From: an uncultured Pseudomonadota bacterium
Lineage (GTDB): Bacteria; Myxococcota_A; Polyangia; Fen-1088
Length of the DNA stretch: 64,000 nucleotides
Assembly: GCA_963847705.1 (NCBI GenBank)
Contig: CAWKBC010000027.1
Coordinates: 416,001-480,000 of the forward strand
Reading direction: 5' to 3'
The translations under genes and the position numbers were made by a program. The notes under the pieces are model-generated. The model was not told the DNA's origin, did no database searches, and saw only the letters and a program-made list of their open reading frames with translations. Numbering within the stretch: position 1 is the stretch's first letter; the number at the start of each line of letters is the position of its first letter. Shown piece by piece: positions 11,219-30,073 of the stretch.

Positions 11219-12733
11219 ATGAAGATGACGGTCACGATGAACAGGATTTCGCTCGCCCTGCTCTTCGGAGGTCCGCTCCTGGTTGCGGTCGGCTGTAGCT
11301 CGAGCGGCGGATCGGGGGGGCCAGCTGGAAACTGGGGCGCCGGCGGAAGCGCGAGCGGTGGGACGACCGGCACCGGGGGAGCCGTCGTCGTCCCCATGCC
11401 GATCGACGCCGGCACGGGCGGCTGCACCTTCACCGGGACCTACGCGGTGAGCCCGGTGATCTCCACCGTCGGGATCGTCACCTTCGCGACGTTGCTCCCC
11501 AACCCGACGGAGGCGCACATCGACTTCGGCCTCGACACCTCCTACGGCATGACGGCGCCGGTCGACCTCACGCAACCCGGCTATCGAACGTTGCTGCTCG
11601 GCATGAAGCCCTCGAAGACCTACCACTTCCAGCTCTCGGCGAGCTCGGCCACCGACGGCGGCGTCCTCACCTGCACCAGCGGCGACCTCACGCTCATGAC
11701 CGGCGCGGCGCCCAACGGGATGCAAAACCCGACGATCACCACGAACGACGCCAGCGCGCTGTTCGGCGGATTTCTCGTCACCGGCCAGTACAACCAGGTG
11801 ATCATCGGCGGAACTTCGGCGGGCGCCCCGGCGTTCATCCTCGACAAGGACGGCACCTACGTCTGGTGGTACACGGTCGTCGGCAGCGACGCCACCGGGG
11901 TCACCATGAGCTACGACGGCAACTACATGTGGATCAACAGCGTGAACGTGCCGAGCCACATCGCCAAGGTGCACCGGGTGTCGATGGACGGGTTGATTGA
12001 CGAGGACCACTCGGACGAGTTCGCGGGCCTCAGCCATCAGCTCACGGTGCTGCCGGACGAGACGGTGGCCTTCTACGCCTACGGCACGAACGGCTGTGAC
12101 GACATCAAGCTGCGCGCGCCGGACGGCACGGTCACCACCGTCGTCAACGCCCAGACCGCGCACGGCGGGACCGACGCCTGCCACGTCAACGCGATCTTCT
12201 ACTCTCGCCCGGACGACACGCTGGTCTTCGGCGACCTCGACAACAACTGCCTCACCAAGATCACGCGAACCGGGACCACCGTCTGGGTCTTGAACGGCGG
12301 CGTCGACACCGGGCCCACCAGCTCGTTCAACGGCGGGGGCCTGGTCTGGCGCGGCGGCGAGCATGGCTTCCACATTCTCGGCCTCGACGACTTCGTCATC
12401 TTCAACAACAACGCGATTGCGCCGGCGGCGAGCAAGGTCAGCTGGGGCGCGGCCGCGGGAGACGGCACCGGCTCGTTCGGGATCGAGATCAAGCTCGACC
12501 TCACGGCGATGACGGCGACGCGGACCTGGGCCTACCAGGCGGTCGGGCTCGACGACAGCGTCCTCGGCGACGCCCAGCGCCTCCCCAACGGCAACACCAT
12601 GATCGACTTCTCGACGAAGGGATCGATCCAGGAGGTCGACGCCAGCGGCAACCTCCTGCAGGAGATCAAGACGACCACGAATTTCGGCTACCTGCAGAAG
12701 CGCGCCACGCTGTATGGTCCACCTCCCAGGTAG
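11219..12733 (+). CDS. Arylsulfate sulfotransferase (ASST)-like lipoprotein 1
   Basis: Lipobox AVGC, Gly/Thr linker, Ig-like domain. Propeller motifs SHQL, CHVNAI (HxN), GEHG and GDAQRLPNGNTMI. Confidence 0.7.
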   Translation: MKMTVTMNRISLALLFGGPLLVAVGCSSSGGSGGPAGNWGAGGSASGGTTGTGGAVVVPMPIDAGTGGCTFTGTYAVSPVISTVGIVTFATLLPNPTEAHIDFGLDTSYGMTAPVDLTQPGYRTLLLGMKPSKTYHFQLSASSATDGGVLTCTSGDLTLMTGAAPNGMQNPTITTNDASALFGGFLVTGQYNQVIIGGTSAGAPAFILDKDGTYVWWYTVVGSDATGVTMSYDGNYMWINSVNVPSHIAKVHRVSMDGLIDEDHSDEFAGLSHQLTVLPDETVAFYAYGTNGCDDIKLRAPDGTVTTVVNAQTAHGGTDACHVNAIFYSRPDDTLVFGDLDNNCLTKITRTGTTVWVLNGGVDTGPTSSFNGGGLVWRGGEHGFHILGLDDFVIFNNNAIAPAASKVSWGAAAGDGTGSFGIEIKLDLTAMTATRTWAYQAVGLDDSVLGDAQRLPNGNTMIDFSTKGSIQEVDASGNLLQEIKTTTNFGYLQKRATLYGPPPR

Positions 12734-12736
12734 CGC

Positions 12737-12765
12737 CGGAGCGTCCGCGGCCGCGCTCCGTTTTT
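12737..12765 (+). terminator. Probable intrinsic terminator
   Basis: Stem CGGAGCG/CGCTCCG followed by TTTTT, directly after the stop at 12733. Confidence 0.6.
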
Positions 12766-12824
12766 GACAGAGCTCTTACCGGAAGACTGGAAACGACCAC
12801 CTCGCCGCAGCGTGGCGGTGTCCC

Positions 12825-12853: not shown

Positions 12854-12946
12854 AATACCGGGAAAAGTGACGGTTTTCGAGCCGGTTTCCGTAAAGGCCG
12901 TCACTGCTTCCCATATCCAATGATGAATTGGGAAAGGGGTTCGTCT

Positions 12947-14599
12947 ATGCGCGTGTCTCCGCCGGTCCTCTTATTCGGTTGTCTTCTCTCGGTCGGCATC
13001 GGCTGTGCCAAGGGCGAATTCATCGTGACGGGCGTTTACGGCGACACGGGCGGCTCCAGCGCGACCGGCGGCTCCTCGAGCGGAGGGAGCAACGGCGATA
13101 CGGGCGGCAGCCCCGGCACCGGCGGCAACCGCAGCGGCACGGGCGGCAACGTCAGCACCGGAGGCGCGACGGGGACTGGCGGCAGGGCAACGGGCGGCAG
13201 CAATGGGACCGGCGGCAGCTCGTCGACGGGCGGCAGCATCGGGACCGGCGGCAGCATCGGGACCGGGGGCAGCCCCGGGACGGGCGGCAGCGGCACCGGG
13301 ACCGGCGGCACCACCACCAGCTGCACCATCACCCCGAGCGCCTCGCCCAGCAGCAAGATCCCGACGGTCGGCATCGTGACCTTCACGACCACGCTGGCCA
13401 GCCCGACCTCCGCGAGCATCAAGTTCGGGCTCGACACGAACTACGGCATGACCGCCCCGGTCGACCTCACGCAGACGAACTACCGGACGCTGCTGCTCGG
13501 CATGAAGGCCTCGAAGACCTACCACTACCAGGTCACCGTCACCAACAGCAGCGGCAGCTGTACCAGCGCTGACCAGATGATCACCACGGGTGCCAAGCCG
13601 AACGGCGGTGGACTCCCCACTTTGACCATCACCACCAACAACAAGGCCGCGCTCTGGGGTGGCTTTCTGGTGATTGGCTCGTACCAGGGCGCGACGAATC
13701 AGTCGTTCATCCTCGACGCCGACGGCGACTTCGTCTGGTGGTACTCCGACGGCAGCGACGGCTGCGGGACCCGGATGAGCTACGACGGCAACTACATGTG
13801 GATCAACAACGGCAACGTTCCGGCAATGACCGGCACCACCCACGTGCACCGGGTGACGATGGACGGGTTGACCGACACGGACCTTTCGACACCGTTCAAC
13901 AACATGAGCCATCAGCTGACGCCGCTCCCGGACGGCAGCGTGGCCTTTTACGCCTCCGGATCGAACGGCTGCGACGACATCAAGATCTTCCCCGCCAACG
14001 GCACCGCGAGCAGCACGGCGACCACGGTGACGAACGCGCGGACGGCGCACGGCGGAACCGGCGCCTGCCACGTCAACAACATCGAGTACTCGCAGTCGGA
14101 TGACACGCTGGTCTTCTCGGACCTCGACAACGATTGTCTGACCAAGGTCTCGAAGACCACCGGCGCGATGGTCTGGGTCCTCAACGGGAACACCATGGGG
14201 ATCACCAGCACCTTCACCGGCGACCTGTGGAGCGGCGGCGAGCACGGATTTCACATGCTCTCTCCGACCGACATTCTGCTCTTCAACAACAATGACAGCG
14301 GCAGCAGCTCACAGGCCCTCGAGCTGACGCTCGATCTCACCGGGAAGAAGTCGACCAAGAAGTGGTCGTATGCCCCCAACCCCGGGATCCAGGTGCAGGT
14401 GCTGGGCGACGTGCAGCGGATGACCACCGCGGGGCCGAGCGGGGCCGGCAACGGCAACACCATCGTCGACTTCGGAACGGGAGACACGCTTCAAGAGGTC
14501 GACTCGAGCGGAACCCTGCTCCAGCAGATCAAGAGCCAGTATCCATTCGGATTTATGGAAAAGCGCGCCTCGCTTTACGGACCACCGACGAGGCAATGA
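12947..14599 (+). CDS. ASST-like lipoprotein 2, paralog of 11219-12733
   Basis: Lipobox GIGC and a long TGG linker. Shares YGMTAPVDLTQ..YRTLLLGMK, SHQL, CHVNNI, GEHG, GDVQR...NGNT with paralog 1. Confidence 0.7.
   Translation: MRVSPPVLLFGCLLSVGIGCAKGEFIVTGVYGDTGGSSATGGSSSGGSNGDTGGSPGTGGNRSGTGGNVSTGGATGTGGRATGGSNGTGGSSSTGGSIGTGGSIGTGGSPGTGGSGTGTGGTTTSCTITPSASPSSKIPTVGIVTFTTTLASPTSASIKFGLDTNYGMTAPVDLTQTNYRTLLLGMKASKTYHYQVTVTNSSGSCTSADQMITTGAKPNGGGLPTLTITTNNKAALWGGFLVIGSYQGATNQSFILDADGDFVWWYSDGSDGCGTRMSYDGNYMWINNGNVPAMTGTTHVHRVTMDGLTDTDLSTPFNNMSHQLTPLPDGSVAFYASGSNGCDDIKIFPANGTASSTATTVTNARTAHGGTGACHVNNIEYSQSDDTLVFSDLDNDCLTKVSKTTGAMVWVLNGNTMGITSTFTGDLWSGGEHGFHMLSPTDILLFNNNDSGSSSQALELTLDLTGKKSTKKWSYAPNPGIQVQVLGDVQRMTTAGPSGAGNGNTIVDFGTGDTLQEVDSSGTLLQQIKSQYPFGFMEKRASLYGPPTRQ
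13047..13320 (+). repeat. Low-complexity Gly/Thr/Ser linker repeats (TGG units)
   Basis: Repeated ACCGGCGGC/ACGGGCGGC codons within the CDS. Confidence 0.8.
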
Positions 14600-14647: not shown

Positions 14648-15712
14648 ATGAGCCGAGCCCGATCGTTCCTTTGCGCCGCCGTCGCCTTGTTGTCCTCGAT
14701 GACGTTCTCCTGTGGGAGCAGCAGCAGCAGCAGCAGCTCCCAGAGCGTGACCTGCACCGACGGGACGATCATCGCGAACCCAGCCAACGACTACAGCTTC
14801 TCGAGCTCGCTGATGCTCCACCCGGTCAGCGTCAAGCCGTTGTCGGACCTGACGTTCAACTGGGGCAGCGTCACCAAGGACTTTCTCGGGCAGCCGGTCA
14901 ACGCCCAGACCGACCTGAACGCGATCTTCCTGTTGCTGGTGAACCTGCCGGCGGCGACGTTCGAGAAGCAGCTGAACAACGATTCGTTCTCCACCTCGTC
15001 GATTGTGATCCCGGGGCCCCCGCCCAGCTTTCTGCCGACCGGCGGCGTGACCACGACGACCCTCTACGACAACTTCATCAGCGCCAACGGGCCGGTCGAC
15101 TCGACCATGGCTGCGATGTACCTCGACGCCACGACCTACACGCCGAGCAACTCCACCTTCGTGATCGCGGCGCAGACCGGAACGAGCATGATCGGGACCG
15201 GGATCCGGATGTTGCAGTCCTTCGAGCTCGATCCTTCGTCGACCAACACCACGGTCAACCTGACCAACACCTCGACGACGCTCACCTACTCGGCGGATCT
15301 GCACAGCCTTCACCCGACCGGGGTTCCCGCGGGAACGGCCGCCCTCTCCCTCGACTGGACCACGCTGTCGACCAACGGGCTCGGCGAGACCCTCTCCGAC
15401 GACGGCAGTCCCGGAACCGTCCCCAGGACGAACATCGGGAACGCGATCGTCGGCCACTACACCCAGACGCCCTCGCAGCTGGAGAGCCAGTTCCTCGACC
15501 TGCAGACCATCGCGACCGACCTCTACAAGGCCGACATCCCCTCCGGGACGGTGCTCGATTTCACGACGCTGAAAGACGGCTCGGGCAACAGCTTTCCGGG
15601 CGTCGACGCGTCGGGGACCTGGCTGGTCGCCCTCATCTGCACCAACTGCCGCAACCCGGCGCCGTACTACCTGACGATCCTCGAGCCGGCCGCGCAGCCC
15701 TGCGCGAAGTAA
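14648..15712 (+). CDS. Uncharacterised lipoprotein with internal two-fold repeat and C-terminal CxxC; paralog of 20307-21281
   Basis: Leader ending in TFSC, then poly-Ser. Motifs DLTFNWGSVTKDFLG, LSLDWTTLSTNGLG and WLVALICTNCRNPAP. Confidence 0.75.
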   Translation: MSRARSFLCAAVALLSSMTFSCGSSSSSSSSQSVTCTDGTIIANPANDYSFSSSLMLHPVSVKPLSDLTFNWGSVTKDFLGQPVNAQTDLNAIFLLLVNLPAATFEKQLNNDSFSTSSIVIPGPPPSFLPTGGVTTTTLYDNFISANGPVDSTMAAMYLDATTYTPSNSTFVIAAQTGTSMIGTGIRMLQSFELDPSSTNTTVNLTNTSTTLTYSADLHSLHPTGVPAGTAALSLDWTTLSTNGLGETLSDDGSPGTVPRTNIGNAIVGHYTQTPSQLESQFLDLQTIATDLYKADIPSGTVLDFTTLKDGSGNSFPGVDASGTWLVALICTNCRNPAPYYLTILEPAAQPCAK

Positions 15713-15764: not shown

Positions 15765-18146
15765 TCAGGCGACGTTGCGGCTCGCCGCCGGCTCCGCCAG
15801 GGCGGGCGCCTTCTGACGCCGCAGGAAGCGCGGTGTGACCATCAGGATCACCGCCGGTAGAAACGCCACCGTCGCGGCGCTGCTGGTCACCATGGTGAGC
15901 GCGACCAGCACGCCGAGGAGGACGTGGACCTTGAAGAAGGAGAGCGTCAGGCAGAGATAGCCGCCCGCCACGGCGCTGGCCACGTAGGCGATGGCCTTGC
16001 CCGAGGTGGTCAGCGCGGTGGCGGTCGCTTCGCGCAGATCGCCGGTGCGCTGGAACTCCTCGCGGACCCGGAAGATGAAGTAGACGGCGTAGTCGGCGCC
16101 GATGCCGACGGCCATGGCCGAGATGGCAGCCGTCCCCATCGACAGCAAGATGCCGGTCCAGCCCATGAGGCCCAGGTTGACCAGCGCCGCGGTGGCCAGC
16201 GGCAGCAGCACCAGGAAGCCGCCTGCCAGCGAGCGCAGAAGGATCGAGGTGATGACCACGACCAGGATCGAGATCTGGATCAGATTGATCGTCTTGCCGT
16301 GCACCATCGTCTCGTTGAGCGCGATGGCGTTGGTGACGCCGCCGCCGACGCGCGCGGTGACCGGCAGGCCGGAGAAGAGGCGGTCGGCCTCGGCCTGGGT
16401 GGCCACGGTCATCCGCTTCATGGCCCGGAAGTCGTCGGTCTTCAGATAGGCGGTGATGACCGCGTGCTCGAACGGCCGGTCGACGAAGTGGGAGAGATCT
16501 TCCTCGTCGCCCCCCATGGCGTAGAGCAACAGGTACTGGGCGACGCCCTGGGTGGTGTCGGGAAGCTTGCCGCCGCCGCTGCCGTCGACGGCCAGGCTGA
16601 TCTGCTTCAGCAGATCGACGATCGACACCACCTTGCCGACGGGGAGTGGCTGGTGCGCGATGAAGACGCCGAGTTGGTCCATCCGCCTCAGAACCTCGGG
16701 GTTCTTGATGACGTCGGGCGTCTCGCCCGACACCAGCACCTGGATGACGCGCGTCCCCGCCAGGCGCTCGTCCGCCATGCGGAAGCCGTGGACCGGCGCG
16801 TTGCGCTCGAAGAACTGCGCCGCCAGGTTGTTGCCAGCCTCGAGGCGGGTGACGCCGATGAGCGCCACGATGATCAGACCGCAGAAGACCCAGACGATGG
16901 GCCGCTCCTTCCCGGTCCGCACCAGCGTCGCCAGCTTTTCGAGGATCGGGTCGAAGTACTCCTCGCGCTTCTCGCGTTCGGTCTGGTGCGCCGACGGCGG
17001 AGACATCAGGACGCGGATGGCCGGGATGAAGGTCATCTCGACGGTCAAGGCCGCGATGATCCCGAACGCCGTGCAGAGGCCGAAGTTCTTGATGGTGGGG
17101 AGCCCGAACGTCGCCAGCGAGCCGAAGCTGAGCGCCGCGATGGTCCCGGCCGCCAGCATGACCAGGCCGACCTTGGTGGTCGCCTCGATGACCGCCAGCC
17201 GGTTGTGCTCCTGCGGCGACAGATCGGCCCGCGCGCCCTGCAGACGGTTGTACTCCTCGTAGTAGCGCTTGAGGATCTGCACCGAGTGGCCGGCGCCAAT
17301 CGCCAGCAGCAGGATCGGCGTCATGATGTTCCAGGGGTCCATCGGCGCGTGGATGAGCCCCATCAGGCCGAGCGCCCAGACGACGCCCATGATCGCGGTG
17401 ACGAGGGGGATGATCATCCCCTGCAGCGTGCGGAAGGCGCGGTAGTGCAGGTAGCCGATCATCGCCAGCGCCAAGACGAAGAGGAGGGCGACGCGCCGGG
17501 TGTAGACCAGCAGCCAGTGAAGGACGGTCGGCGCGCCGGCGGCGACGATCTCCAGCCCCGGCACCCGCTCGGGCGCCAGAATCTCCTCCAGGCGGTCGTA
17601 GAGGAAGCGCGAGCCGCCGGCCTTCTCGAAGTCGCTGAAGTCAGCCAGCACCGAGGTCGCGCGGCCGTCGTCGCTGACGAAGAGGCTGGTCAGAAAGCCA
17701 TTCGCCTTGACCCGCTCCCGGAAGGCCGCCACCTCGGCGTCGGTCTGGGGGACCTTGTCGGCGAGCGGCGTGATCTCCAGCGAGTCGGTCGAGCTGTGGA
17801 TGTCCTTCACCCGTGACGACATGAGCGACAGGACACTGCCGGTCTTGATGCCAGGGAGCTTCTCCAGCTTCTCGGTGACCCGCTTCACCCTGCCGAGGAT
17901 GTCGGGCGTGTAGACCGTTCCCGACTCCGGATAAAAGCCGATCACCGTCATGTACTTTCCGCCGAAAAGCTTCTCGATCCGCTTGCCGGTGATCACCAGC
18001 GGATGTCCGGGCGGGATCTGGGCGTCGACGTCCAGGAGGACGTGTAGCCGGGTCATGGAGAAGCCGAGCGCCAACGTCACCAGCGCGACCAGCGCGATGA
18101 CGAGCTTGGGCCGGCCGACGATCGCGGTCACATAGCGGCGCAGCAT
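15765..18146 (-). CDS. MMPL/RND-family lipid exporter
   Basis: Two repeats of 1 TM + periplasmic loop + 5 TM, 793 aa. GIGADYAVY motif. Confidence 0.88.
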   Translation of the reverse strand: MLRRYVTAIVGRPKLVIALVALVTLALGFSMTRLHVLLDVDAQIPPGHPLVITGKRIEKLFGGKYMTVIGFYPESGTVYTPDILGRVKRVTEKLEKLPGIKTGSVLSLMSSRVKDIHSSTDSLEITPLADKVPQTDAEVAAFRERVKANGFLTSLFVSDDGRATSVLADFSDFEKAGGSRFLYDRLEEILAPERVPGLEIVAAGAPTVLHWLLVYTRRVALLFVLALAMIGYLHYRAFRTLQGMIIPLVTAIMGVVWALGLMGLIHAPMDPWNIMTPILLLAIGAGHSVQILKRYYEEYNRLQGARADLSPQEHNRLAVIEATTKVGLVMLAAGTIAALSFGSLATFGLPTIKNFGLCTAFGIIAALTVEMTFIPAIRVLMSPPSAHQTEREKREEYFDPILEKLATLVRTGKERPIVWVFCGLIIVALIGVTRLEAGNNLAAQFFERNAPVHGFRMADERLAGTRVIQVLVSGETPDVIKNPEVLRRMDQLGVFIAHQPLPVGKVVSIVDLLKQISLAVDGSGGGKLPDTTQGVAQYLLLYAMGGDEEDLSHFVDRPFEHAVITAYLKTDDFRAMKRMTVATQAEADRLFSGLPVTARVGGGVTNAIALNETMVHGKTINLIQISILVVVITSILLRSLAGGFLVLLPLATAALVNLGLMGWTGILLSMGTAAISAMAVGIGADYAVYFIFRVREEFQRTGDLREATATALTTSGKAIAYVASAVAGGYLCLTLSFFKVHVLLGVLVALTMVTSSAATVAFLPAVILMVTPRFLRRQKAPALAEPAASRNVA

Positions 18147-18148: not shown

Positions 18149-18814
18149 TCAGCGCTTCTCCAGCAGCGAGCGGATCAACGGCTCCCGCGTGTCGCTCTTG
18201 GGGGCGAAGTAGCTGGCCATGACCACCCGCCGCGCCCCGGCCTCGCGCTCGGTGAGGTCGAGCAGCACCTGCCCACCCGCCGAGAGGACGACGGTTCGAA
18301 GGGCGTCGGGGCTGACGGCGTAGATGAGGCGGTCACCTTTTTGATACCCGCGCTCCTGAAGCGGGGCGAACCACTGAGGGATTCCGTTGCTGACCCGCTG
18401 CTCGATGTCGCGGCCGATGAGCCCGGCCTCGCGCGCCAGCTCCAGGTTGTCGCGCACGACACCGATCCAGCGGTTGAGCGGGACGTCGCGCACGAACTGC
18501 ATCTGCACGATGGCGTGCGGGGCGGCGATGGCCGCCGCGGCGAGCTGGGCGTCGAGCGGATAGGAGTACGCCTGTCCCCGCGCCAGCTCGGCGAAGTGGG
18601 CCTGGGTCGGCTTGTCGACGCGCACGTCGACGGTGGCGACGTCGATCTTGAGCACCGTCTTCTGCAACAGCATGTGCATCGATGAGTACGGACCTTGCGC
18701 CAGCTCCGGCGAATCGAGCGAGGGGAGGGCACCCCCCGCCATCAAGGCGGGGGCCAACAGCACGGCCGCCAATCCAGTGGCGGCAGCGAAGGACCTGTGC
18801 GGGATGCGTGACAT
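18149..18814 (-). CDS. Secreted protein, possibly chalcone-isomerase-like (lipid-binding) fold
   Basis: Signal peptide. The pattern MQFVRDV...KGDRLIY...SYF...LIRSLL resembles bacterial CHI-like proteins by eye. Confidence 0.45.
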   Translation of the reverse strand: MSRIPHRSFAAATGLAAVLLAPALMAGGALPSLDSPELAQGPYSSMHMLLQKTVLKIDVATVDVRVDKPTQAHFAELARGQAYSYPLDAQLAAAAIAAPHAIVQMQFVRDVPLNRWIGVVRDNLELAREAGLIGRDIEQRVSNGIPQWFAPLQERGYQKGDRLIYAVSPDALRTVVLSAGGQVLLDLTEREAGARRVVMASYFAPKSDTREPLIRSLLEKR

Positions 18815-18833: not shown

Positions 18834-20300
18834 TTACTTGCCAAACCTGCAGATGAGGGCCAGCGAAACGAGGTGAGAGGTGGCGGCGAAGGTGCCGGCG
18901 TTGACGTTACAGGCGTTCGGATCGGAAGCGGGGGCGGTGCAGGCGCCGCCAGGGGTCTGCTGGTAGACGCGGGCGTCCGCCTCGGCGACGGTGACGCTCG
19001 GTTGATAGCGCAGCTGGTAGGTGAGGGCCACCTCGGCGCGCCCCAGCAGCAGCGAGGCGCCCAGTGCGGCGCCAAGCTGCGCCCCGGCCGGAAAGTCGAC
19101 GTTGGAGTACGCCGCCGGTGACGCTGCCGTCTCGTAATAGACGCCGGCGCGCAGCGTCCAGCGCTCGGGCACCAGGTTGAAGTCGCCGCCCAGCTTGACG
19201 CTGAAGACGTCGTTCCACTGCTTGGGGACGGTGATCGTCCCGATCGGCACGTGCTGGCTTCCAGCGGTGGCGACCAGCCCGTTGCTGTCCACGGTGAAGG
19301 CATTGGCGCGCGACCAGGTCTCGTACTCGACGTCCAGCTCGAGGTCGAACAGCTCGCGTCCGCCGGTTTGGTGTCGGTAGCGTCCCCCGGCGCGCACCAT
19401 GAGCGGCAGCGGCAGCTTGACGGTCACATCTCTCGCCGAATCCGGGGCGCCCCCGTTCCGCGCCGTGGTGATGCTGGGGAGCACCTTCGTACCGTCAGCG
19501 TTGAAGGCCAGACCGGTGAGGTCGAGCGTGCTGTGGGTGACGATGCTTGCTGGAAGAATCTGCCCGGCCAGCCCAAATTCCAGCGACGGCGTCGGGCGGA
19601 GCCAGGCGCCCACGATCGCGTTGAAGGTGGCCCAGTCCGAGCCGCTCGTCTGCGCCAGTATGTCTTCCGTGCTCGACACGGGGTTGGCGGCGCCCGGGGC
19701 CGGATTGGCGTTGATCACCAGCGAGTAGTCGAGCCGCGGGACGGTGATCCACTCCAGCGTCACCCCGACACCGAACAGATCGTGGTACTTCCAGGCGGCG
19801 CTGGCGGCGACATCGAGGATGATCGCCTGGCGGTTCACCATCATGTAGCGCTGGCCGCCGTCCTGCGGAAACTGCTCCCGGCTGATCCCAGGCGGCGCGA
19901 AGGCGGCCAGCGCAAAGGCCCAGTCCCGCAGGCCGAGGCGCGATGAGCCGCCGATGAAAGGGAGGGCCGCCTGCCAGGGGGTCCCGTTGTGGACCTTGGC
20001 GAAGGTGGTGGGCTGCGTGGGGGTGGGGCTCTGTCCGTAGTCGATCGTCGGCGCGCGCGTGTAGTCGTAGCTGTTGTAGGAGAACTGGTTGCCGATCTGA
20101 ATGGTCGACTCGTCGAGATCGGCCAGCCCGGCGGGGTTGATGCTGACCGCCGTGACGTCGTCAGCCCGGGCCACGAAGGCCCCGCCGCGGCCGGCGGCGC
20201 GAGGGCCGAGCGCGCCCTGATAATAGCCGCCGTCGGCGAGCGCCGGTGAGGCGACCGCCGCCGTCAAGAGCAGCGTCGAGAGTCCTGCGCGAGACTTCAA
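18834..20300 (-). CDS. FadL/OmpP1/TodX-family outer membrane transporter for hydrophobic compounds
   Basis: After the signal peptide: GGYY...GPRAAGRGGAFVARADDVTAVSINPAGL. Also YETWS, WNDVFSVKLGG, LRAGVYYE. Confidence 0.85.
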   Translation of the reverse strand: MKSRAGLSTLLLTAAVASPALADGGYYQGALGPRAAGRGGAFVARADDVTAVSINPAGLADLDESTIQIGNQFSYNSYDYTRAPTIDYGQSPTPTQPTTFAKVHNGTPWQAALPFIGGSSRLGLRDWAFALAAFAPPGISREQFPQDGGQRYMMVNRQAIILDVAASAAWKYHDLFGVGVTLEWITVPRLDYSLVINANPAPGAANPVSSTEDILAQTSGSDWATFNAIVGAWLRPTPSLEFGLAGQILPASIVTHSTLDLTGLAFNADGTKVLPSITTARNGGAPDSARDVTVKLPLPLMVRAGGRYRHQTGGRELFDLELDVEYETWSRANAFTVDSNGLVATAGSQHVPIGTITVPKQWNDVFSVKLGGDFNLVPERWTLRAGVYYETAASPAAYSNVDFPAGAQLGAALGASLLLGRAEVALTYQLRYQPSVTVAEADARVYQQTPGGACTAPASDPNACNVNAGTFAATSHLVSLALICRFGK

Positions 20301-21621: not shown

Positions 21622-22695
21622 TTGAGCCTGCCTGAATTGCATCTGTCGAAGCCGGGCGTGGCGTTGCCCGCGACGGCCGTCGACAACGCCGAAATCATCC
21701 GACGCGTCCGCGCGCGCTTCAAAGGGAGCGAAGCGGAGTTCTCGGTGATTGCCTCGGCCATCGAGCACGTCTTCGGCCTCTGCAAGACGCGGGTGCGCTA
21801 CCTCGAGCCCGACGAGCGGCAGGGAATCGTGGCCGACTATGCGGTGCGGGCGGCGCAGGACTGCCTGGCGGTCAACGGCGTCTCGCTCGAGGAGGTCGAC
21901 CTGGTGATCTGCGGCGGGATCGCCCGTCAGTACTTCGAGCCAGCGACGGCCATGGAGGTCGCCGCCAAGCTCGGCCTCAAGAAGACGCACGCCTTCGACG
22001 TCACCGCGGCCTGCGTCGGCCACCTGGAAGCCATCCAGACGGCGGCCGGGTACCTGGCGCTTCATCCCAATTACCGAACCGCGTTGGTCTGCACGGCAGA
22101 GCTCTCGGGCCCGTTCCTGAGCTACGACATTCAGACTGTCCGCGACCTGCAGATGAAGACCGCGGGGTTGACGATCGGCAACGCGGCGGCCTGCATGCTG
22201 GTGCGCCGGATTCCATTTCCGGAAGGCGGAGTCCGGTTGATGGCCATCAACACCTTCACGGCGCCCGACCATTGGCACCTTTGTCAGGTGCCGATCGGGG
22301 GCACGTTGGTCTCTTCTTCGGTTGAGCTGATGAGGCTCGGCAAGTACATTCCCCCCTGGGTCACGGAGCGTCTGGGCGCGCTCGGTCTGAAGCCCGACGA
22401 CATCGCCCACTACGTCTTTCATCAACCGAGCGAGATCATGGTGCGCAAGATCTTCGACGACATCGGTGTCGATCAGACAAAGGGCGTCTACACGCACGCG
22501 CGCTACGGCAACACCGCCAGCGCCAGCGTCGGGGTGACCTATCGGACCCTTCTGGAAGAGCGGGCGTTGAAGCGCGGCGAGAAGATCGTCCTCGGCAGCG
22601 CGGCGGCCGGCTACTCGATGGTCATGGCCACAGGCGAGTGGACCGGGTCGGCTGGCAAAAACGCTGACAAGATCGCCGGCAAGATCGCGCAATAG
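21622..22695 (+). CDS. 3-oxoacyl-ACP synthase III family condensing enzyme, OleA-like
   Basis: Triad motifs FDVTAAC (Cys), FHQPS (His), YGNTAS (Asn). RQYFEPATA resembles OleA RDYLEPSTA. Also AGLTIGNAAA. Confidence 0.82.
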   Translation: MSLPELHLSKPGVALPATAVDNAEIIRRVRARFKGSEAEFSVIASAIEHVFGLCKTRVRYLEPDERQGIVADYAVRAAQDCLAVNGVSLEEVDLVICGGIARQYFEPATAMEVAAKLGLKKTHAFDVTAACVGHLEAIQTAAGYLALHPNYRTALVCTAELSGPFLSYDIQTVRDLQMKTAGLTIGNAAACMLVRRIPFPEGGVRLMAINTFTAPDHWHLCQVPIGGTLVSSSVELMRLGKYIPPWVTERLGALGLKPDDIAHYVFHQPSEIMVRKIFDDIGVDQTKGVYTHARYGNTASASVGVTYRTLLEERALKRGEKIVLGSAAAGYSMVMATGEWTGSAGKNADKIAGKIAQ

Positions 22696-22702: not shown

Positions 22703-24247
22703 ATGAAACTCTCCGTCAGCGTCGCGTTGCTGATCTGCTGCGCAGGGGCGCGCGTCGCGCGAGCGGACAGCGACGGCGGCGCGCCGCCCAGCGAGGCGAC
22801 GCCACCGCCGGCAGCGCCCGCGGGTGAACAACCGACCGTCGAGCCGACCGCCGACCCGGGTGGGGGGCTCTTCGAGCAGAGCAACGCCGCCGCTGCGGCG
22901 GCGCCGGGTGCGGGCGCGGCGCCGGCCCCCACGGCCGTCGGACCGTTCACCCTCACGGGGTACGTGCGTGGCGACATGTTCGCCGGCAAGGTCTCGGGGC
23001 AGGACGCCGCCGAGCTGAAGGCCGGCTACGGCGAGCTGGATCTGACGCTGCGAACTGCGAAGGAGACCTACGGCGACGGCTTTGCCGAGGCGCGCATCCG
23101 GTATGGTCTGCAGGCCGACGGCCTCCAGGCGACGGTCGTCGACCTGCGCGAGGCCTACGTCAACACCTACCTCGGCCCGCTCGACCTGCGCATCGGCCAG
23201 CAGATCATCGTCTGGGGGCGCGCCGACGCGCTCAATCCGACCAACAACCTGACCCCGCTCGACTTCCGCATTCACTCGCCGATCGAGGACGATATTCGGA
23301 TCGGCAACGCCGGCGCGCGCGCGTTCCTGCGCTTCGCCCCCTTCCGCCTGGAGGGGGTCTGGATGCCGCTCTACCTGCCGACCGAGCTGCCGGCGGTGCA
23401 GCTCCCGCAGTACGTCTCGTACGGGGCGCCGCTCTTCCCGTCGCTCAATCTGAAGGACGGGACGGAGGCGGTCCGTCTCCACCTCGAGCTGCCCGCCATC
23501 GAGATGTCCGTCTCGTACCTCCACGGCTTCGCGCCGCTTCCCGGGCTTTCGCCGACGCCGAACGGGATCACGTTGACGGCCGCCGACGACGGAACGCCGA
23601 GCACCACGACTCCGCCGTCGATCCTGGTCTCGCGCACGGCCTACGAGCAGCAGGTGCTGGGCTTCGACTTCTCGACCTCGCTGGGTGAGGTCGCCACCCT
23701 CCGCGGCGAGGCGGCCTACCGGCGCCCCTACAACTGGGCGGTGCCCGCCGACCATCACATCGCCTACCCCGACGTCCAGTACACCGTCGGCGCCGACCAC
23801 ACCTTCGGCTCGCTGAGCGTCATCGTGCAGTACATGGGTCGCTACGTCTTCGACTGGCAGAAGCAGAGCGGGCCGGCGATGGTGCTCGATCCTGCGGTCC
23901 TCCCGATGGAGGCGATGGCGAACCTGAAGTTCGTGAGCGACATCGTCAACGCCACCCTGGCCAAGCAGAACCAGATCCTCTTCTCGCAGACCGCGCAGCT
24001 CCAGCACCTGGGGACGCTGCGCTTCGAGTGGCTGGCGCTGCACGAGACGTTGTCGATCTCGTCGCTCTGCCTCTACAACTTCACCACGCGCGAGTGGCTC
24101 ATCACCCCGCGCATCGGCTACCGTCTGTCCGACGCAATCACCATGTATGCCGGCGCGCAGGTCTTCCACGGGCCGGCCGACACGCTGTTTGGCATCATCG
24201 ACGCCCAGCTCTCCGCCGGCTACGCCGAGCTGCGCTACACCTTCTGA
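22703..24247 (+). CDS. Outer membrane beta-barrel (DUF1302-like)
   Basis: Signal peptide, LREAYV...DLRIGQQIIVWGRAD..NPT motif, C-terminal ELRYTF beta-signal. Confidence 0.75.
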   Translation: MKLSVSVALLICCAGARVARADSDGGAPPSEATPPPAAPAGEQPTVEPTADPGGGLFEQSNAAAAAAPGAGAAPAPTAVGPFTLTGYVRGDMFAGKVSGQDAAELKAGYGELDLTLRTAKETYGDGFAEARIRYGLQADGLQATVVDLREAYVNTYLGPLDLRIGQQIIVWGRADALNPTNNLTPLDFRIHSPIEDDIRIGNAGARAFLRFAPFRLEGVWMPLYLPTELPAVQLPQYVSYGAPLFPSLNLKDGTEAVRLHLELPAIEMSVSYLHGFAPLPGLSPTPNGITLTAADDGTPSTTTPPSILVSRTAYEQQVLGFDFSTSLGEVATLRGEAAYRRPYNWAVPADHHIAYPDVQYTVGADHTFGSLSVIVQYMGRYVFDWQKQSGPAMVLDPAVLPMEAMANLKFVSDIVNATLAKQNQILFSQTAQLQHLGTLRFEWLALHETLSISSLCLYNFTTREWLITPRIGYRLSDAITMYAGAQVFHGPADTLFGIIDAQLSAGYAELRYTF

Positions 24248-24267
24248 CCACCAACGAGGACGCCACC

Positions 24268-25065
24268 ATGCACACCCGCCGCTTCCTGTTCGCCCTGTTC
24301 GCCTTGCTGCTCTCCGGGACGGCGCAGGCGGACAAGGGCCCCTCGGCCCGCGAGATCATGGACAAGGTGACCACCACCCGGAAGCTCGACGGCTCGGAGG
24401 CGGTCATCAAGATGACCGTCTTCGGTGAAGGCGGGCAGGCGCGCGAGCGCGAGATCTCGATGGCCACCAAGCTCTACGACGGCGGCAAGACCGAGAAGCG
24501 CATCTACCGCTTCCTGTCGCCGGCCGACGTCCAGGGGACGGGGATCCTGGTCTACGACTACGAAGCCAAGCCGGACGACGTCTGGATCTACCTGCCCGCA
24601 TTGCGCAAGACGCGACGGGTGGTCAGCACGCAGCGCGCGCAGAGCTTCATGGGGAGCGAGTTCTCGTACGGCGATCTGAACATCCCCTCGCTCGACGACT
24701 TCAACTACACGCTGGTGAAGGAAGAGGAGTCGGGGGGCGAGCCCTGCTACGTCATCGACCTGGCGCCGAAGACCAAGGAGATCGCAGAGGCCGAGGGCTA
24801 TTCGAAGAAGACCTACTGGGTGAGCAAGGCGAAGATGGCGGTCGTGCGGGGGCTCTACTACGACAAGGACGGCAAGCTGCTGAAGGAGCTCATCGCCCAG
24901 GACATCAAGCTGCTCGACCCCAAGAACAAGCGGTACCGGGCGATGCACATGGAGATGGTCAACAAGCAGAACGGCCGCAAGTCCGTCTTCGAAACCAAGA
25001 AGGTCACCTTCTCCCCCAGCACCAAGGACGACTACTTCACCACCGCCTACCTCGAGCGCAGCTGA
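24268..25065 (+). CDS. Outer membrane lipoprotein-sorting protein (LolA-like)
   Basis: Signal peptide. F.SPADV.GTG.L, DDVWIYLPALRKTRR, SFMGSEFSYGDL, YDKDGKLLK. Confidence 0.88.
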   Translation: MHTRRFLFALFALLLSGTAQADKGPSAREIMDKVTTTRKLDGSEAVIKMTVFGEGGQAREREISMATKLYDGGKTEKRIYRFLSPADVQGTGILVYDYEAKPDDVWIYLPALRKTRRVVSTQRAQSFMGSEFSYGDLNIPSLDDFNYTLVKEEESGGEPCYVIDLAPKTKEIAEAEGYSKKTYWVSKAKMAVVRGLYYDKDGKLLKELIAQDIKLLDPKNKRYRAMHMEMVNKQNGRKSVFETKKVTFSPSTKDDYFTTAYLERS

Positions 25066-25295: not shown

Positions 25296-25461
25296 CCCGC
25301 CGGTCTTGCCGTCCGTCTGGCCGTCGTTTGTCCCGTCGGTCTTGCCGTCCGTCTGGCCGTCGTTTGTCCCGCCGGTCTTGCCGTCCGTCTGGCCGTCGTT
25401 TGTCCCGCCGGTCTTGCCGTCCGTCTGGCCGTCGTTTGTCCCGTCGGTCTTCCCGTCCGTC
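25296..25461. repeat. 36-bp tandem repeat (about 4.6 copies) built from three 12-bp subunits
   Basis: CCCGYCGGTCTTGCCGTCCGTCTGGCCGTCGTTTGT repeated head to tail from 25296, with no spacers. Confidence 0.9.
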
Positions 25462-25503
25462 GTCGCGGGCCTCCGGGCGGAGAGGAGCGTTGTTCCGAGG
25501 CAA

Positions 25504-25616
25504 GCGGGAGGGACGGGGATTCGGTCGGCCGGAGCTGAGTCGGGCGGCTCTGTCGTTCCGCCCGACGATTCCAACCTTTTAGGTGCGGAGGCCGACCGAA
25601 TCCCCGTCCCTCCCGC
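25504..25616 (-). repeat. Structured element copy B: perfect 27-bp inverted repeat enclosing the reverse complement of the copy A core
   Basis: Arms 25504-25530 and 25590-25616. The reverse complement of core 25531-25589 matches core A at 54/59. Confidence 0.85.
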
Positions 25617-25629
25617 CCCCGCCGAAGAG

Positions 25630-25690
25630 TTGAGCGGAGCGGAGTGGAGCGGAGCTGAGCGGAGCGGAGTCCAGCGGAATTGAACGGAGC
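25630..25690. repeat. (GAGCG)n microsatellite-like tract
   Basis: GAGCGGAGCGGAGTGGAGCGGAGCTGAGCGGAGCGGAG, mirrored by a (TCGC)n tract at about 25095-25112. Confidence 0.7.
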
Positions 25691-25704
25691 CCCGCGAGGC
25701 TGGG

Positions 25705-26847
25705 TCAGCGGGCGGAGGCGGGGGCGGGTGCCGGGGCCGAGGCGGGGAGGTTCAGCGGGGGAAGGAAGGTGTCGTAGAAGAAGGCGCAGTCGCGCCGGAT
25801 CTGTTCCTCGGTGAGGCCGAACTTCTCGAGGTCGTACTTGTGCTCCGACTCGTACTGGCGCTGCTTCTCGCCGCGCTTGGCGATGGTGGCGCGCAGCTTG
25901 GGCGTCATCTCGTGGCCGAGGAACTCGCACATCTCGTCCATCATCCCCTCGAAGTCGGCCATCATCCGGTCGTAGCGGACGATGAAGACGCGCTTCTTGT
26001 CGATGAGGCCGCCGGTCCAGTCCTCGTGGAACTTCTGCAGCAGGAGAACCCAGGCCTTGTACATCCGGTCGAGCCAGCGCTTGCGCACCGGCTCGGGCAG
26101 CGACCAGAACCCCACCGCGCGATCGAGCACCCCGATGACCAGGCTCATCGAGCTGGGGATCACCGACAGCGGATCGCGCGCCATGTAGAGGATCTGTGCC
26201 TCGGGGACGTTCTGGAGGAACTGCGGCAGCCGGACCGCCAGCGAGAACAGCTTGGCGATGTTGCGCTCCGACTTGTGCAGCACCAGGCTGCGGCGCCAAA
26301 GCGCGTCCAGCCAGGCGGCGTCGCGCGCCGAGGTGTCGCGCACGCGCGGGTCGAACCACGGCAGAAGATCTTCGTCGTCGAACGACAGAAAGAACCCGTA
26401 GAGGAAGAAGCCGTCGAGGTAGCGGAACAGCACGCCGACGTCGTCGGTCTCGACCGAGCTGAGGCTGGTCTGGTGGGCGTCGGTCGAGTGATACTTGGCC
26501 GGGCTGATCTTCTCGAGCAGCGGCAGAATCGGCCGCAACAGCTTCTGCAACGTGAGCGACGGGTAGAGCATCAAGAACAGCTCCATCCCCGAGCCGAAGC
26601 CCTCGTCGGCCAGGAAGCGCTGCAGGAAGGTGGTCCCGGTGCGCGGGTTGCCGACCAGCACGATGGGGCGGTTGGCCCGCGTCTTCCGCAGGCGCGGGAA
26701 GAAGACGTTGTCCAGCGCCATGGCCACCGCGACGAACGTCCGCACGCATCCAAAGAGCACCGCGATGAAGAGCGGCGCGACCTTGACGCCGAAGGTTCGC
26801 CGCAGCACGCGGTAGACCCGACCCATTCGAGAGAAGATGCTGTTCAT
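25705..26847 (-). CDS. PAPS-dependent sulfotransferase with N-terminal hydrophobic segment
   Basis: 5'-PSB loop VGNPRTGTT, 3'-PB motif YMARDPLSVIPS, VRYDRM, C-terminal H.Y.LE.FGL. Confidence 0.88.
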   Translation of the reverse strand: MNSIFSRMGRVYRVLRRTFGVKVAPLFIAVLFGCVRTFVAVAMALDNVFFPRLRKTRANRPIVLVGNPRTGTTFLQRFLADEGFGSGMELFLMLYPSLTLQKLLRPILPLLEKISPAKYHSTDAHQTSLSSVETDDVGVLFRYLDGFFLYGFFLSFDDEDLLPWFDPRVRDTSARDAAWLDALWRRSLVLHKSERNIAKLFSLAVRLPQFLQNVPEAQILYMARDPLSVIPSSMSLVIGVLDRAVGFWSLPEPVRKRWLDRMYKAWVLLLQKFHEDWTGGLIDKKRVFIVRYDRMMADFEGMMDEMCEFLGHEMTPKLRATIAKRGEKQRQYESEHKYDLEKFGLTEEQIRRDCAFFYDTFLPPLNLPASAPAPAPASAR

Positions 26848-27002
26848 GTCGCGTCCGAGCCTCGAGCTTTCTCTGCCCTGTGTGACCCTGCCTCCCCGAT
26901 GACCTGGAGGCCAGTCTCACGCAGTAGCAGCGGCGGCCTGAAAAGGGTCACGTTACCGCTTCAACGTCACGACTCCGCGGTGACTCTATCAGTGGCGCGA
27001 GG

Positions 27003-27974
27003 TCAGGCCGCGCCGAACTGCGTCTCGAACGCTTCGGTGAATTTGTGGAGATCCTCGTTTGGCAGGTGGTTGATGCCGGCCGCCGTGCGGCGTCCGCCAC
27101 CCGTCGGGAAGGTGCGGCAGAACGCCTCCGCCGAGACGGATGAGTCGCGCGGCACGCGCACCGAGACCAGGTAGCCGCCGCTGGTCTTCGGCGAGACGAT
27201 CGCGACGGCGTCGCCGGCGTACGCGCGGGCGAGGTCATTGGCCAGCGTCCCGCTGGCTCGCCGCGCCCAGGCGGCGTCGGGGAGCGTGAAGCAGACGGCG
27301 CCCTTGGTCCGGCGCGCCGGCTCGAGGCGGCGCGCCAGCTCCATGTCATGGCGAAACCCCTCGGCCAGGCGGCGGCAGGCGGCCGACTGTTCGGCAAACG
27401 CGAGCGGATCGGCAAACGGCGCCATCTCGGCCGCCAGATCGGCGGGCAGGACGTGCAAGTCCTCGAGCGTCTCGCCGTAGGCGTTGTAGTTGATGGCGAC
27501 GCCGAGCTCCTTCAGGCGCTCGGTGGCCGCGGCGTCGAGCCCGGGGTCTGCCGCTGCCAATGCTCGGGCCTCGTCGCCCAGGCTGTCGCCGAAGAGGCCG
27601 ACGATCGCCCAGCGCCGAAACCTCCCCGTGAGGGCGCGGTCGACGAGGAGGCTGGTGCAGACGTTGGGGCTGAGGTCGAGGTGTGCCTCCAGCCCCGGGT
27701 GCTTGGGGACCTCGCCGGTGAAGTGATGGTCGAAGTAGCGGACCTGCACCCCCGCCTCGAGGAGCGCGACGAGCGCGGCCCGGTTCACGTCGAGCGAGAT
27801 GTCGAGGACGGTGCAACGATCCCCCGGCTGCGCGGCGCCGGTCACCCGCGCCAGCAGCGCGATGTCACGCTTGACGCCGGTGACCAGTGTTCCGGGGGGC
27901 GCCCCGTCGAGACGCAGCTGCTGAAGCGCGCAGAGACCGTCGGCGTCACCGTTGAAGACGTAGCTGTGATTCAA
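27003..27974 (-). CDS. DHH-family phosphoesterase, candidate 3'-phosphoadenosine-5'-phosphate phosphatase
   Basis: [23 protein letters not shown]. Overlaps the stop of the upstream cysC fusion (ATGA-type coupling). Confidence 0.8.
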
Positions 27975-30073
27975 GACAGAACCCCTCTCGTTTGTAGAAA
28001 CGCCACGATCGCCACGGCCGCCTCCTCGGGTGAAGTGACGGTGGTGTCGATCCTCAACTCCGGATTCTCCGGCCCCTCGTAAGGGGAGTCGATGCCGGTG
28101 AAGTTCTTGAGGTCGCCGCGCCGCGCCTTCTTGTAGAGGCCCTTCGGGTCCCGCTGCTCGGCCACGGCGAGCGGCGCGTCGATGAAGATCTCGATGAACT
28201 CCCCCTCACCGACCAGCGCGCGCGCCATCATCCGCTCCGCGCGAAACGGGGAGATGAACGCCGTCCCGACGATCAGGCCGGCGTCGACCATCAACCTGGC
28301 CACCTCGCCGATCCGCCGGATGTTCTCCACCCGATCGACGTCGGTGAACCCCAGGTCCTTGTTGAGCCCGTGTCGGACGTTGTCACCGTCGAGCAGGTAG
28401 GTGTGCCGCTTCAGGCTGTGCAGCTTCTTGTCGACCAGGTTGGCGATGGTCGACTTTCCGGCCCCCGAAAGGCCGGTGTACCAGAGGACGCAGGCCCGCT
28501 GCTGCTTGAGCGCCGCCCGGGCGTTCTTGTTCACCTCCAGCGCCTGCCAGTGGACGTTCTGGGCGCGCCGCAGGGCGAAGTGCAGCATCCCGGCGCCCAC
28601 CGTCTCGTTGGAGAGTCGGTCGATGATGAGGAAGCCGCCGGTGTCGTGGTTCACCTCGTACGGATCGAACGCCACGTCGCGGTCGACGTGGACGTTGCAG
28701 ACGCCGATCTCGTTCATCCCCAGGGTCGTGCCGGCCAGCCGCCCCAGCGTGTCCACGTCGAGCTTGTGCTTGAGGGGGGCGAGCGAGCCGGTGACCAGCT
28801 GGGCGCCGACCTTCACGAAGTAGTCGCGGCCGCGCAAGAGCGGGGAGGGGTTCATCCAGACCACGGTCGCCTCGAACTGATCGGAGCTCTCGGCGGGCTC
28901 GGCGGACGCCACCAGGAGATCGCCCCGCGCAAGCTCGACCGCGTCGGCCAGCGCGACTGTGACCGACTGCCCGGCGGAGGCCTCGGGCAGATCTCCCTGC
29001 GGGGTGGCCAGCCGGGTGACGCGGCTGAGCTGTCCCGAGGGCTGAACACGAACGGCGTCGCCCACCCGGACCCGACCGGCGACGATCGTCCCGGCGAACC
29101 CATGGAGCTGGGCGCGCGGCCCGAGCACCCATTGCACTGGCAGACGCAGCGGCCGGGCGATGAGGTCTGCGTCGCCGGTCTCGGCGGCCTCGAGCAGACC
29201 GAGCAGCGTCGCTCCCGCATACCAAGGGGTGGCGCCGCCGCGCGCGAGGACATTGTCTCCGGTGGCCGCCGAGACCGGCACACAGGCGACCGGCGGCAGC
29301 TTCAACCCGGCGGAGAACTCTCGGTACTCGTCGACGACGCGCGCGAACGCCGCCTCGCTCTGGCCGGCGAGGTCGATCTTGTTGACCGCCAGGACCAGCT
29401 GACGGACGCCCAGCACGGAGAGGAGCACCAGGTCGCGCCGGACCGTCGTCGACAGCCCCTGGTGAACGTCGACCACCACGACGCTGAGATCGGCGCTGGC
29501 GGCGGCGGTCAGCACGCCGCGTGGATCGCGATCCTGACCGGGCACGTCGTCGACGATGAAGTCGTGCCTGGCGGGCCCGCTGGCCGCCCGCGCACGGGCC
29601 AGCGGTGCGCCCGCCGCAGGCGAGAGCAGCGCGGCCAGGGCGCTCTTGCCGCTGCCGGTGCCACCGCAGAGGTGAAAGCGCAGGGCAGATCGCCCAGCGA
29701 CGCCGGCGAGGCAGTCGCGGAGGTCGGCCTCGGTCCAGCCGGCGAACGGGAAGAGGCGCACGGTCTCGCCCCGGCGTTTGATGGCATGCCCGAGGCGCCA
29801 GATGGGGGCCGGCTGGTTCGGGGCGCCCGTCGGGCGCGCGCCGTCGATCACGAGATCGAAACCCCGCTTGGCCGACGCCGCGGCCAGCGCCTCACGGGCC
29901 ACGATGGGGAAGGGCGGCTCGAGCGGGTAGAACGCGCGACCCGCCAGCCGCCCGAGCGCCGTGCTCTCCGCATCGTCGGCGCGGACCATCACCGGCCGCT
30001 TGGCCTCGGCGACCGCTTCCCATAGCAGCCGAATCGCGGCGCCTTCCAAGCGCTCTGGACGGGAGGTGCTCAT
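27971..30073 (-). CDS. cysC: Adenylyl-sulfate kinase fused to eroded CysD and CysN domains
   Basis: The C-terminal kinase is canonical: [50 protein letters not shown]. The N-terminus has CysD-like and CysN-like remnants. Confidence 0.9.

Follow-up and report, generated by a model that had tools for sequence, protein, structure and literature searches.

A conserved gene block of Polyangia as a candidate lipid-sulfate donor pathway for envelope arylsulfate sulfotransferases

Where do the arylsulfate sulfotransferases (ASSTs) of the bacterial envelope obtain the sulfate that they transfer? Most ASSTs have no known natural donor, acceptor or role (PMC13426309), and since exported ASSTs cannot reach 3'-phosphoadenosine 5'-phosphosulfate (PAPS), the source of their sulfate is an open question. 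This question is raised by a gene block at positions 11219-30073 of a 64,000-nucleotide stretch of an uncultured myxobacterial genome of the class Polyangia (contig CAWKBC010000027.1, positions 416,001 to 480,000; hereafter the window), in which two ASST-like lipoproteins are encoded together with a 3-ketoacyl-acyl carrier protein synthase III (KAS III, here KAS), a PAPS-dependent sulfotransferase (ST) and a set of lipid transport proteins. We find that the block is a real, conserved and undescribed sulfation module, and we give an even chance to the reading that it relays sulfate in two steps across a Gram-negative envelope, with a lipid sulfate as the donor for envelope ASSTs. If this relay holds, two-step sulfation is here stretched across the envelope, and the block would point to a natural donor in an enzyme family for which hardly any is known. 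Its genes and one accessory neighbour are as follows (window coordinates, strand).

11219..12733, +: ASST1 lipoprotein, with Gly/Thr linker, FN3-like domain and ASST beta-propeller (PF05935)
12923..14599, +: ASST2, a paralogue of ASST1 (54% identity) with a longer linker (PF05935)
14648..15712, +: CxxC lipoprotein 1, two beta-sandwich domains and a C-terminal CxxC-xx-PAP (predicted structure)
15765..18146, -: MMPL/HAE3-type resistance-nodulation-division (RND) transporter, 12 predicted transmembrane segments (Pfam MMPL, E 8e-39)
18149..18814, -: exported chalcone-isomerase (CHI)-fold protein, likely lipid binding (AlphaFold and Foldseek)
18834..20300, -: FadL-family outer-membrane channel (E 7e-23)
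20307..21281, -: CxxC lipoprotein 2, paralogue of CxxC lipoprotein 1
21622..22695, +: OleA/PpyS-type KAS III with Glu106, Cys131, His267 and Asn297 (PRK09258 best model)
22703..24247, +: DUF1302-family outer-membrane barrel (37.2 bits, cut-off 23.2)
24268..25065, +: LolA-like periplasmic carrier, PF17131 (LolA_like, E 4e-55)
25705..26847, -: PAPS-dependent ST with N-terminal hydrophobic helix (Sulfotransfer_3, E 1e-19)
27003..27974, -: DHH/DHHA1 phosphoesterase, likely a 3'-phosphoadenosine 5'-phosphate (PAP) phosphatase (DHHA1 23.7 bits, below the cut-off of 25.9)
27971..30073, -: CysD'-CysN'-CysC fusion (APS_kinase, E 7e-68)
9548..11203, +: accessory calcineurin-like metallophosphoesterase with lipobox (Pfam Metallophos, E 5e-9; true start perhaps later)

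Each named gene in 11219-30073 is an open frame with coding-type GC content at third codon positions, and 14 of the 14 genes that a sequence-only reading of this DNA had placed there proved real, their families being upheld by Pfam and NCBIfam. That reading had described one 19-kb block: the genes are adjacent, but they form four oppositely oriented runs rather than one operon, namely ASST1-ASST2-CxxC1 (+), CxxC2-FadL-CHI-MMPL (-), KAS-barrel-LolA (+) and cysD'N'C-DHH-ST (-). The genes for MMPL, the LolA-like carrier, barrel, FadL, CHI-fold protein, ST, DHH protein and both CxxC lipoproteins have no close paralogue outside the block in the window's own genome (G000; 6.1 Mb, 85% complete).

Is this grouping more than chance? 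An orthologue of the KAS occurs in 21 of 24 genomes of the same genus (76-95% identity) and in none of 16 other genomes of the class, and a metagenome scan added 80 further loci (69-97% identity). We took the best 80 of 111 related KAS-seeded loci (single loci, these and others, carry L numbers below; the named relatives are Polyangia/Myxococcota metagenome genomes), together with profiles made from these 80 loci themselves, and found within 10 kb of the KAS the LolA-like carrier in 55, the barrel in 54, an ASST in 51, a CxxC lipoprotein and FadL in 50 each, the ST in 48, MMPL in 42, the CHI-fold protein in 37, CysC in 31 and the DHH protein in 20. Among the 39 loci of at least 20 kb the counts were 33 for ASST, 31 for LolA, 30 each for barrel and FadL, 29 for ST, 28 for CxxC and 27 for MMPL. 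Gene order and strand differ between loci, so that the block is conserved with reshuffling. At the most distant loci only a KAS-ST unit is left, in many cases preceded immediately by an ASST. Such minimal ASST-KAS-ST runs recur in remote lineages, and in several of them (L105, L107, L111, L113) the ASST has the complete His-His-Asn-Arg-His set of residues; KAS-ST pairs with no ASST in the fetched flank are seen at L102, L104, L109, L110, L112, L119 and L120. The same-genus orthologues and the recurrence within 10 kb in changing order show that the grouping exceeds chance. Sulfate/sulfite transporters of four unrelated types also adjoin the block, depending on lineage (L063, L056/L109, L072/L096 and L096).

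Which part of the block persists furthest? In a phylum survey (one draw of 300 genomes, a close ST being one of at least 400 bits) the Glu-type KAS was found in 16 genomes, a close ST in 33, the ASST family in 67 and the CxxC family in 32. ASST genes were present in 31 of the 33 close-ST genomes versus 36 of the 267 others, and at least three copies were counted in 27 of 33 versus 12 of 267 (up to 5 copies scored per genome), a co-occurrence that is strong but overstated, and to that extent counts less for the relay, since the ASST and CxxC profiles were made from ST-linked loci and related genomes are not independent. All 32 CxxC genomes carry an ASST, 25 of them a close ST and 30 an ST of at least 230 bits, and of 74 CxxC genes at least 33 have a listed ASST no more than 400 bp away. 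The ST, the ASST-like lipoprotein and the CxxC lipoprotein form the core that persists furthest. Around this core, other parts are exchanged. At 20 ST-seeded loci without Glu-KAS (from 18 of the 21 ST genomes lacking Glu-KAS, plus 2 with Glu-KAS elsewhere) an unrelated KAS III lies within 450 bp of the ST in 8, and an ASST within 2.3 kb in 9, 7 of these within about 150 bp. These partner KAS IIIs lack the Glu and form two other clades, three KAS III clades in all by a quick tree with long-branch warnings that was used solely to split Glu from non-Glu clades, and the ST tree (41 rows) requires repeated changes of partner KAS. Within the 80 loci the likely PAP phosphatase is either the DHH protein (20) or CysQ (7), never both. 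In L148 the ST is followed by a START-domain protein (weaker cases in L145 and L146) in the place that the CHI-fold protein takes in Polyangia, and the exporter belongs to either of two MMPL clades (24 loci at >60% and 17 loci at <35% identity) or to a third in L120. That unrelated proteins of equivalent function have repeatedly been recruited round one ST is the best evidence that the ST sulfates a KAS III-derived, exported lipid. A gene-neighbourhood test had been proposed along with the sequence-only reading, and its outcome is that ST and ASST stay linked even where KAS and transport genes have been replaced, which favours a shuttle over a chance cluster.

How would such a relay work? Adenosine 5'-phosphosulfate (APS) from an intact CysD/CysNC pair would be converted to PAPS by the CysC domain, and the Glu-type KAS III would join two acyl thioesters head to head. 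The membrane-associated ST would then sulfate an enolic or phenolic hydroxyl of the lipid from PAPS, with the DHH protein removing inhibitory PAP. MMPL may move the sulfated lipid to the periplasm, with the LolA-like, CHI-fold and barrel proteins carrying it outward, and the tethered ASSTs, probably with their CxxC lipoprotein partner, would accept the sulfate on His382 before handing it to an acceptor in the envelope or outside the cell, for which the block has no gene. The stripped lipid might return through FadL, a step that is possible but unsupported. An extension to the Myxococcota at large would have a dedicated lipid sulfate take the place of PAPS outside the cytoplasm: one ST would charge a KAS-made carrier, swappable exporters would deliver it, at least five tethered ASST-CxxC units spread over the genome would spend it on surface or secreted targets, and the stripped carrier would return through FadL. 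We hold this tentative idea to be less likely than not; if true, no endogenous circuit that supplies envelope ASSTs with a donor would have been described before in a Gram-negative bacterium.

The closest precedent is caprazamycin biosynthesis (cpz; Streptomyces sp. MK730-62F2), in which the sulfate that Cpz8 places on a triketide pyrone is transferred onward by Cpz4 (PMC6731281); the cluster is listed as type III polyketide synthase (PKS) plus ST (PMC12135136), and Cpz4 and LipB sulfate sugars (PMC11576661). Both systems link a thiolase-fold condensing enzyme, a PAPS-dependent ST and a PAPS-independent ASST in one cluster. Unlike cpz, the block has an OleA/PpyS-type KAS III, an ST of the mycobacterial-lipid type and several tethered lipoprotein ASSTs, and it adds a lipid transport set and PAPS/PAP genes while lacking an acceptor pathway. 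The adp cluster for sulfated adipostatin (Streptomyces davaonensis) likewise joins a lipid-forming condensing enzyme to an ST and a dedicated PAPS cassette; it differs in having a type III PKS, five genes and no ASST or exporter, with sulfated alkylresorcinols as the end product. With no type III PKS, the block belongs to neither group.

What would the condensing enzyme make? Its only Pfam matches are ACP_syn_III and Thiolase_N; the best NCBIfam model, PRK09258, scores 137 bits against a cut-off of 285, below the OleA equivalog threshold, and the DpgA model 42.6 of 425 bits. Glu106, Cys131, His267 and Asn297 are invariant in 38 of 38 KAS rows, and the nearest solved structures are 3ROW, 3FK5 and 5VXH, which we take to be Xanthomonas OleA. 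Residue spacing agrees with the OleA catalytic numbering E117/C143/H285/N315 (PMC9486936). The comparison with Cpz6 made in the sequence-only reading survives as to the thiolase fold and fails as to type III PKS, the KAS being OleA/PpyS-like. It shares with OleA of Xanthomonas, PpyS/PyrS and NocG the Glu-Cys-His-Asn site of non-decarboxylative head-to-head condensation; it differs from them in its score below the PRK09258 cut-off, in the lack of conserved oleBCD and in being paired with an ST. We rejected an oleBCD-type olefin neighbourhood since no such neighbours are conserved: no OleD reductase or OleC ligase occurs in the block, home-made profiles gave scattered, unconserved matches in 120 loci, and there is no hydrolase among the recurrent families of the block. 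OleA, PpyS and NocG share the Glu and differ in product, and MxnB/CorB make pyrones without it (PMC4578411, PMC9486936), so the catalytic Glu cannot separate a beta-keto acid from a pyrone. With no conserved reductase or ligase, the hydroxyl has to arise by enolisation or be brought in with a hydroxyacyl substrate. We regard a product with an enolic hydroxyl, for example a dialkyl 4-hydroxy-2-pyrone, as the leading candidate, predicted with roughly balanced confidence. A 4-hydroxy-2-pyrone fits because non-Glu KAS IIIs can substitute and because a ketosynthase-acyltransferase-acyl carrier protein module (KS-AT-ACP) with a decayed ketoreductase (KR) occurs beside the KAS: in two genomes of one genus a single-module type I PKS, KS-AT-(decayed KR)-ACP, lies between KAS and ST (L124:10513-15468, L125:4585-9492), and it would supply the beta-ketoacyl partner for pyrone closure.

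CurM/Ols chemistry forms an olefin by decarboxylative elimination of a sulfated intermediate, and the sulfate of the block might similarly be a leaving group, an OleA-type beta-keto acid being reduced, sulfated and eliminated to an olefin in place of OleBC. The nearest solved relatives, OleA structures with the same four catalytic residues, agree with this, as does a lipid-directed ST; against it stand the want of a conserved reductase or ligase in the 120 loci and of a hydrolase among the recurrent families, the substitution by non-Glu KAS IIIs and the ASSTs, which it leaves unexplained, so that we consider this route very improbable. Two further observations concern the Glu-KAS clade. Cultured Mycolicibacterium from the environment (palauense, chubuense NBB4, chlorophenolicum, obuense and sphagni; P0220, P0258, P0276, P0297, P0315) have members of it as well, at 42% identity; searches for their genomic context gave plasmid matches below 30% identity and none in viral contigs. 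A LuxE-like acyl-protein synthetase is encoded directly upstream of distant Glu-KAS genes whose ST lies on another contig (L128:7217-8275, L129:10607-11617).

The ST (PF13469, 71.7 bits) is the only PF13469 match in the window's genome and carries the PAPS motifs GNPRTGTT (66-73) and RDP..S (224-232), the G66-T73 core and R224/S232 being invariant in 28 rows. Its relatives bear the Joint Genome Institute (JGI) name menaquinone sulfotransferase, and its nearest solved structures, 2Z6V and 2ZQ5, are presumably mycobacterial. What had been called an APS kinase does hold an intact CysC domain, but is in fact a 700-residue fusion with a CysD remnant and CysN: most of the first 90 residues of CysN are missing and the sulfurylase parts are internally deleted. 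The single-frame fusion stays open in several members of the genus, with CysN domains 2-3 retained, and is, to judge from its sequence, a streamlined APS kinase. Other lineages have intact cysD and cysNC within the block; in the window's genome the intact pair lies 13 kb upstream of ASST1. In the DHH protein DADG, D58 and DHH are invariant in 9 rows, while it falls below the DHHA1 cut-off and has no match in the PDB; three IMPase-family genes lie elsewhere in the genome. YtqI, which we take to be a DHH-family protein, offers a comparison. It complements cysQ (PMC1935014), and the block's protein is likely a PAP phosphatase.

Can the ASST-like lipoproteins transfer sulfate? Both exceed the PF05935 cut-off of 24.2 bits (ASST1 55.6, ASST2 46.8), and the ASST profile finds 9KF6 (E 7e-33) and E. 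coli AssT (3ELQ, E 5e-24), plus an N-terminal FN3-like domain. Both have a lipobox and a long Gly/Thr linker. ASST1 keeps His273, His322, Asn324 and His382, with Leu340 at the site of Arg374, and ASST2 has the same His-His-Asn-Leu-His set. The N-terminal beta-sandwich, the propeller and the equivalents of His252, His356, Asn358 and His436 are thus shared with E. coli AssT (3ELQ) and 9KF4/9KF6; the block proteins differ in the Leu, in their lipid anchors on long linkers and in being encoded with a candidate endogenous donor pathway and a CxxC lipoprotein. The Arg374 equivalent binds the sulfuryl group in EcAST, St_ASST_5 and Dh_ASST_6 and is conserved in characterised ASSTs (PMC13426309; bioRxiv 2026.10.08.757629,.757636); on this point the envelope-ASST role that the sequence-only reading gave the window proteins is not supported. 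All four unlinked paralogues among the six ASST-like genes of the window's genome have Arg at this site. In a tree of 70 of 90 ASST rows, made after removal of short rows and of a random share of the near-genus rows, the window ASSTs and three of these paralogues fall in a clade of 32 rows that keeps the three histidines in 32 of 32 and has Leu at the Arg374 site in 21, Arg in 7 and other residues in 4. These sequences suggest a tuned rather than a dead enzyme, and the window ASSTs are putative members of the active ASSTs.

CxxC lipoproteins 1 and 2 are paralogues at 27% identity. The model of the first is all-beta with a predicted local distance difference test score (pLDDT) of 90.7, and the CxxC motif is kept in 36 of 37 aligned rows; searches gave no Pfam family, no PDB sequence match, no Atlas hit and no Foldseek match at E<=0.001 (best VIA Z 5.3). 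A thioredoxin-like, DsbL-type role found no support in the all-beta model. On gene adjacency alone, the CxxC lipoprotein is probably the partner of the ASSTs, and by its sequence it appears to be a new family that marks the system. Four more Cys-rich lipoprotein families without a Pfam match accompany the block elsewhere, in 18, 10, 5 and 3 of the 80 loci (L044:135-1097, L097:11057-11857, L100:11949-12983, L078:13621-14412, L065:390-1058).

The sulfolipid could instead be an end product, destined for the outer membrane or for secretion, with the ASST and CxxC lipoproteins binding, placing or turning over the lipid. That KAS, ST and dedicated PAPS genes mirror the adp cluster (PMC12135136), that ST relatives carry a lipid (menaquinone) sulfotransferase name, that the window ASSTs lack Arg374 and a second clade lacks His356, and that KAS-ST pairs occur without an ASST in the fetched flank would all accord with it. 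However, the three histidines are kept throughout the window ASST clade, ASSTs are multiplied and dispersed in ST genomes beyond the need for placing one lipid, and ST-ASST adjacency persists without any KAS. We therefore see the end-product explanation as a real though less probable option.

In which direction does the transport set work? The MMPL protein has HAE3 as its best NCBIfam model (198.9 of 351.9 bits, below the cut-off), and the CHI-fold protein, which has no Pfam hit, matches CHIL/CHI/FAP by Foldseek (E 2.6e-7, TM-score about 0.6, AlphaFold model), a fold that would likely bind lipid. With RND, LolA-like and DUF1302 proteins, the block holds an AmeABCD-type set and resembles AmeABCD and the DUF1302/DUF1329/BNR/RND cassettes in combining an HAE3-like RND protein, a LolA-superfamily carrier and a DUF1302 barrel; it differs in that no BNR/COG4447 (AmeC) subunit was detected by Pfam in the block, and in being linked to biosynthesis and sulfation genes, not to hydrocarbon catabolism. 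AmeABCD, the characterised HAE3 cassette of Castellaniella, is an exporter (PMC6394551), while related MMPL-LolA and DUF1302/DUF1329/RND genes are responsive to alkanes and to fatty esters (PMC6304351, bioRxiv 2020.07.04.188060), so family membership does not settle direction. On the latter evidence the set could import lipids or phenolics for detoxification, with the ST sulfating them, the ASSTs shuffling sulfate among aryl compounds of the surroundings and the KAS a separate passenger. FadL is an importer, and of the 80 loci 3 to 5 have TRAP transporter (TRAP-T) genes with the block; yet KAS IIIs of three unrelated clades have been taken up right next to the ST, no catabolic genes are conserved with the block, and the characterised relative exports, which makes uptake unlikely. 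The TRAP-T genes (TAtT/DctP/DctQ/DctM) stand inside the block in some lineages (L103:997-5751, L082, L065, L066, L084).

Several observations weigh against the relay. Both window ASSTs have Leu at the Arg374 site, and no compensating basic residue was identified in the alignment columns; of 90 distinct ASST rows, 65 keep His-His-Asn-His, 21 of these with Arg or Lys. His356 is gone from a second cluster-linked clade, which in Polyangiaceae lies next to CxxC2/FadL, so that catalysis may be absent in some members. ASSTs are present in 36 genomes without a close ST, and 12 of the 20 ST-seeded loci show no KAS at all. OleA, moreover, releases a beta-keto acid without a hydroxyl. Close FadL relatives occur in 89 of 300 genomes yet in 7 of the 33 ST genomes, and close LolA-like relatives in 5 of 33 (single-protein queries, compared by hand with the ST list), which makes export by this machinery lineage-specific. 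The genes for the export by MMPL, LolA and barrel that had been proposed accordingly follow the ST in only part of the phylum; recycling through FadL found no specific support. DUF1302/LolA/RND cassettes elsewhere are tied to hydrocarbon uptake or tolerance. Lastly, no conserved acceptor gene was found, membrane glycosyltransferases included: a check of 39 membrane candidates (26 scanned together, several others in other scans) turned up single cases only, a TMEM260-like protein at L113 and a GT87 at L139.

The relay nevertheless addresses the question raised at the outset: the block offers a candidate donor pathway for envelope ASSTs, a new condensing-enzyme clade and a new lipoprotein family, and it gives MMPL/LolA-like/DUF1302 cassettes a biosynthetic context. 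Even if the lipid is an end product, an undescribed sulfated lipid is predicted in abundant soil myxobacteria. As the sequence-only reading had supposed, no described myxobacterial system with this gene set appeared in the literature searched, most subscription journals lying outside it; a 22-clade ASST phylogeny that may cover the block's clade is in preparation (bioRxiv 2026.10.08.757629,.757636).

Some minor features complete the picture. A scan of the block gave no sigma-70 promoter-like site and terminator-like sites at chance level (9 vs 8.9), and no RNA holder is listed for it. The metallophosphoesterase gene, beyond the limits first drawn for the block, ends 15 bp 5' of ASST1 and accompanies the block in 13 of 80 loci. 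In this genome the block has two sulfatase-family genes and a phosphodiesterase/sulfatase-like gene on its flanks (1093-2571, 7169-9151, 39105-41672), and a membrane sulfatase abuts the ST in L135. An exported dihaem c-type cytochrome is encoded 3' of the block at 30226-30813, in close relatives only. Between the converging LolA-like and ST genes lies a repeat element (25066-25704) with 71-nt inverted arms (93%), nested hairpins and four 36-bp tandem units; similar arms occur on contigs C14, C7, C34 and C8, and it looks like an element of the miniature inverted-repeat transposable (MITE) or repetitive extragenic palindromic (REP) type.

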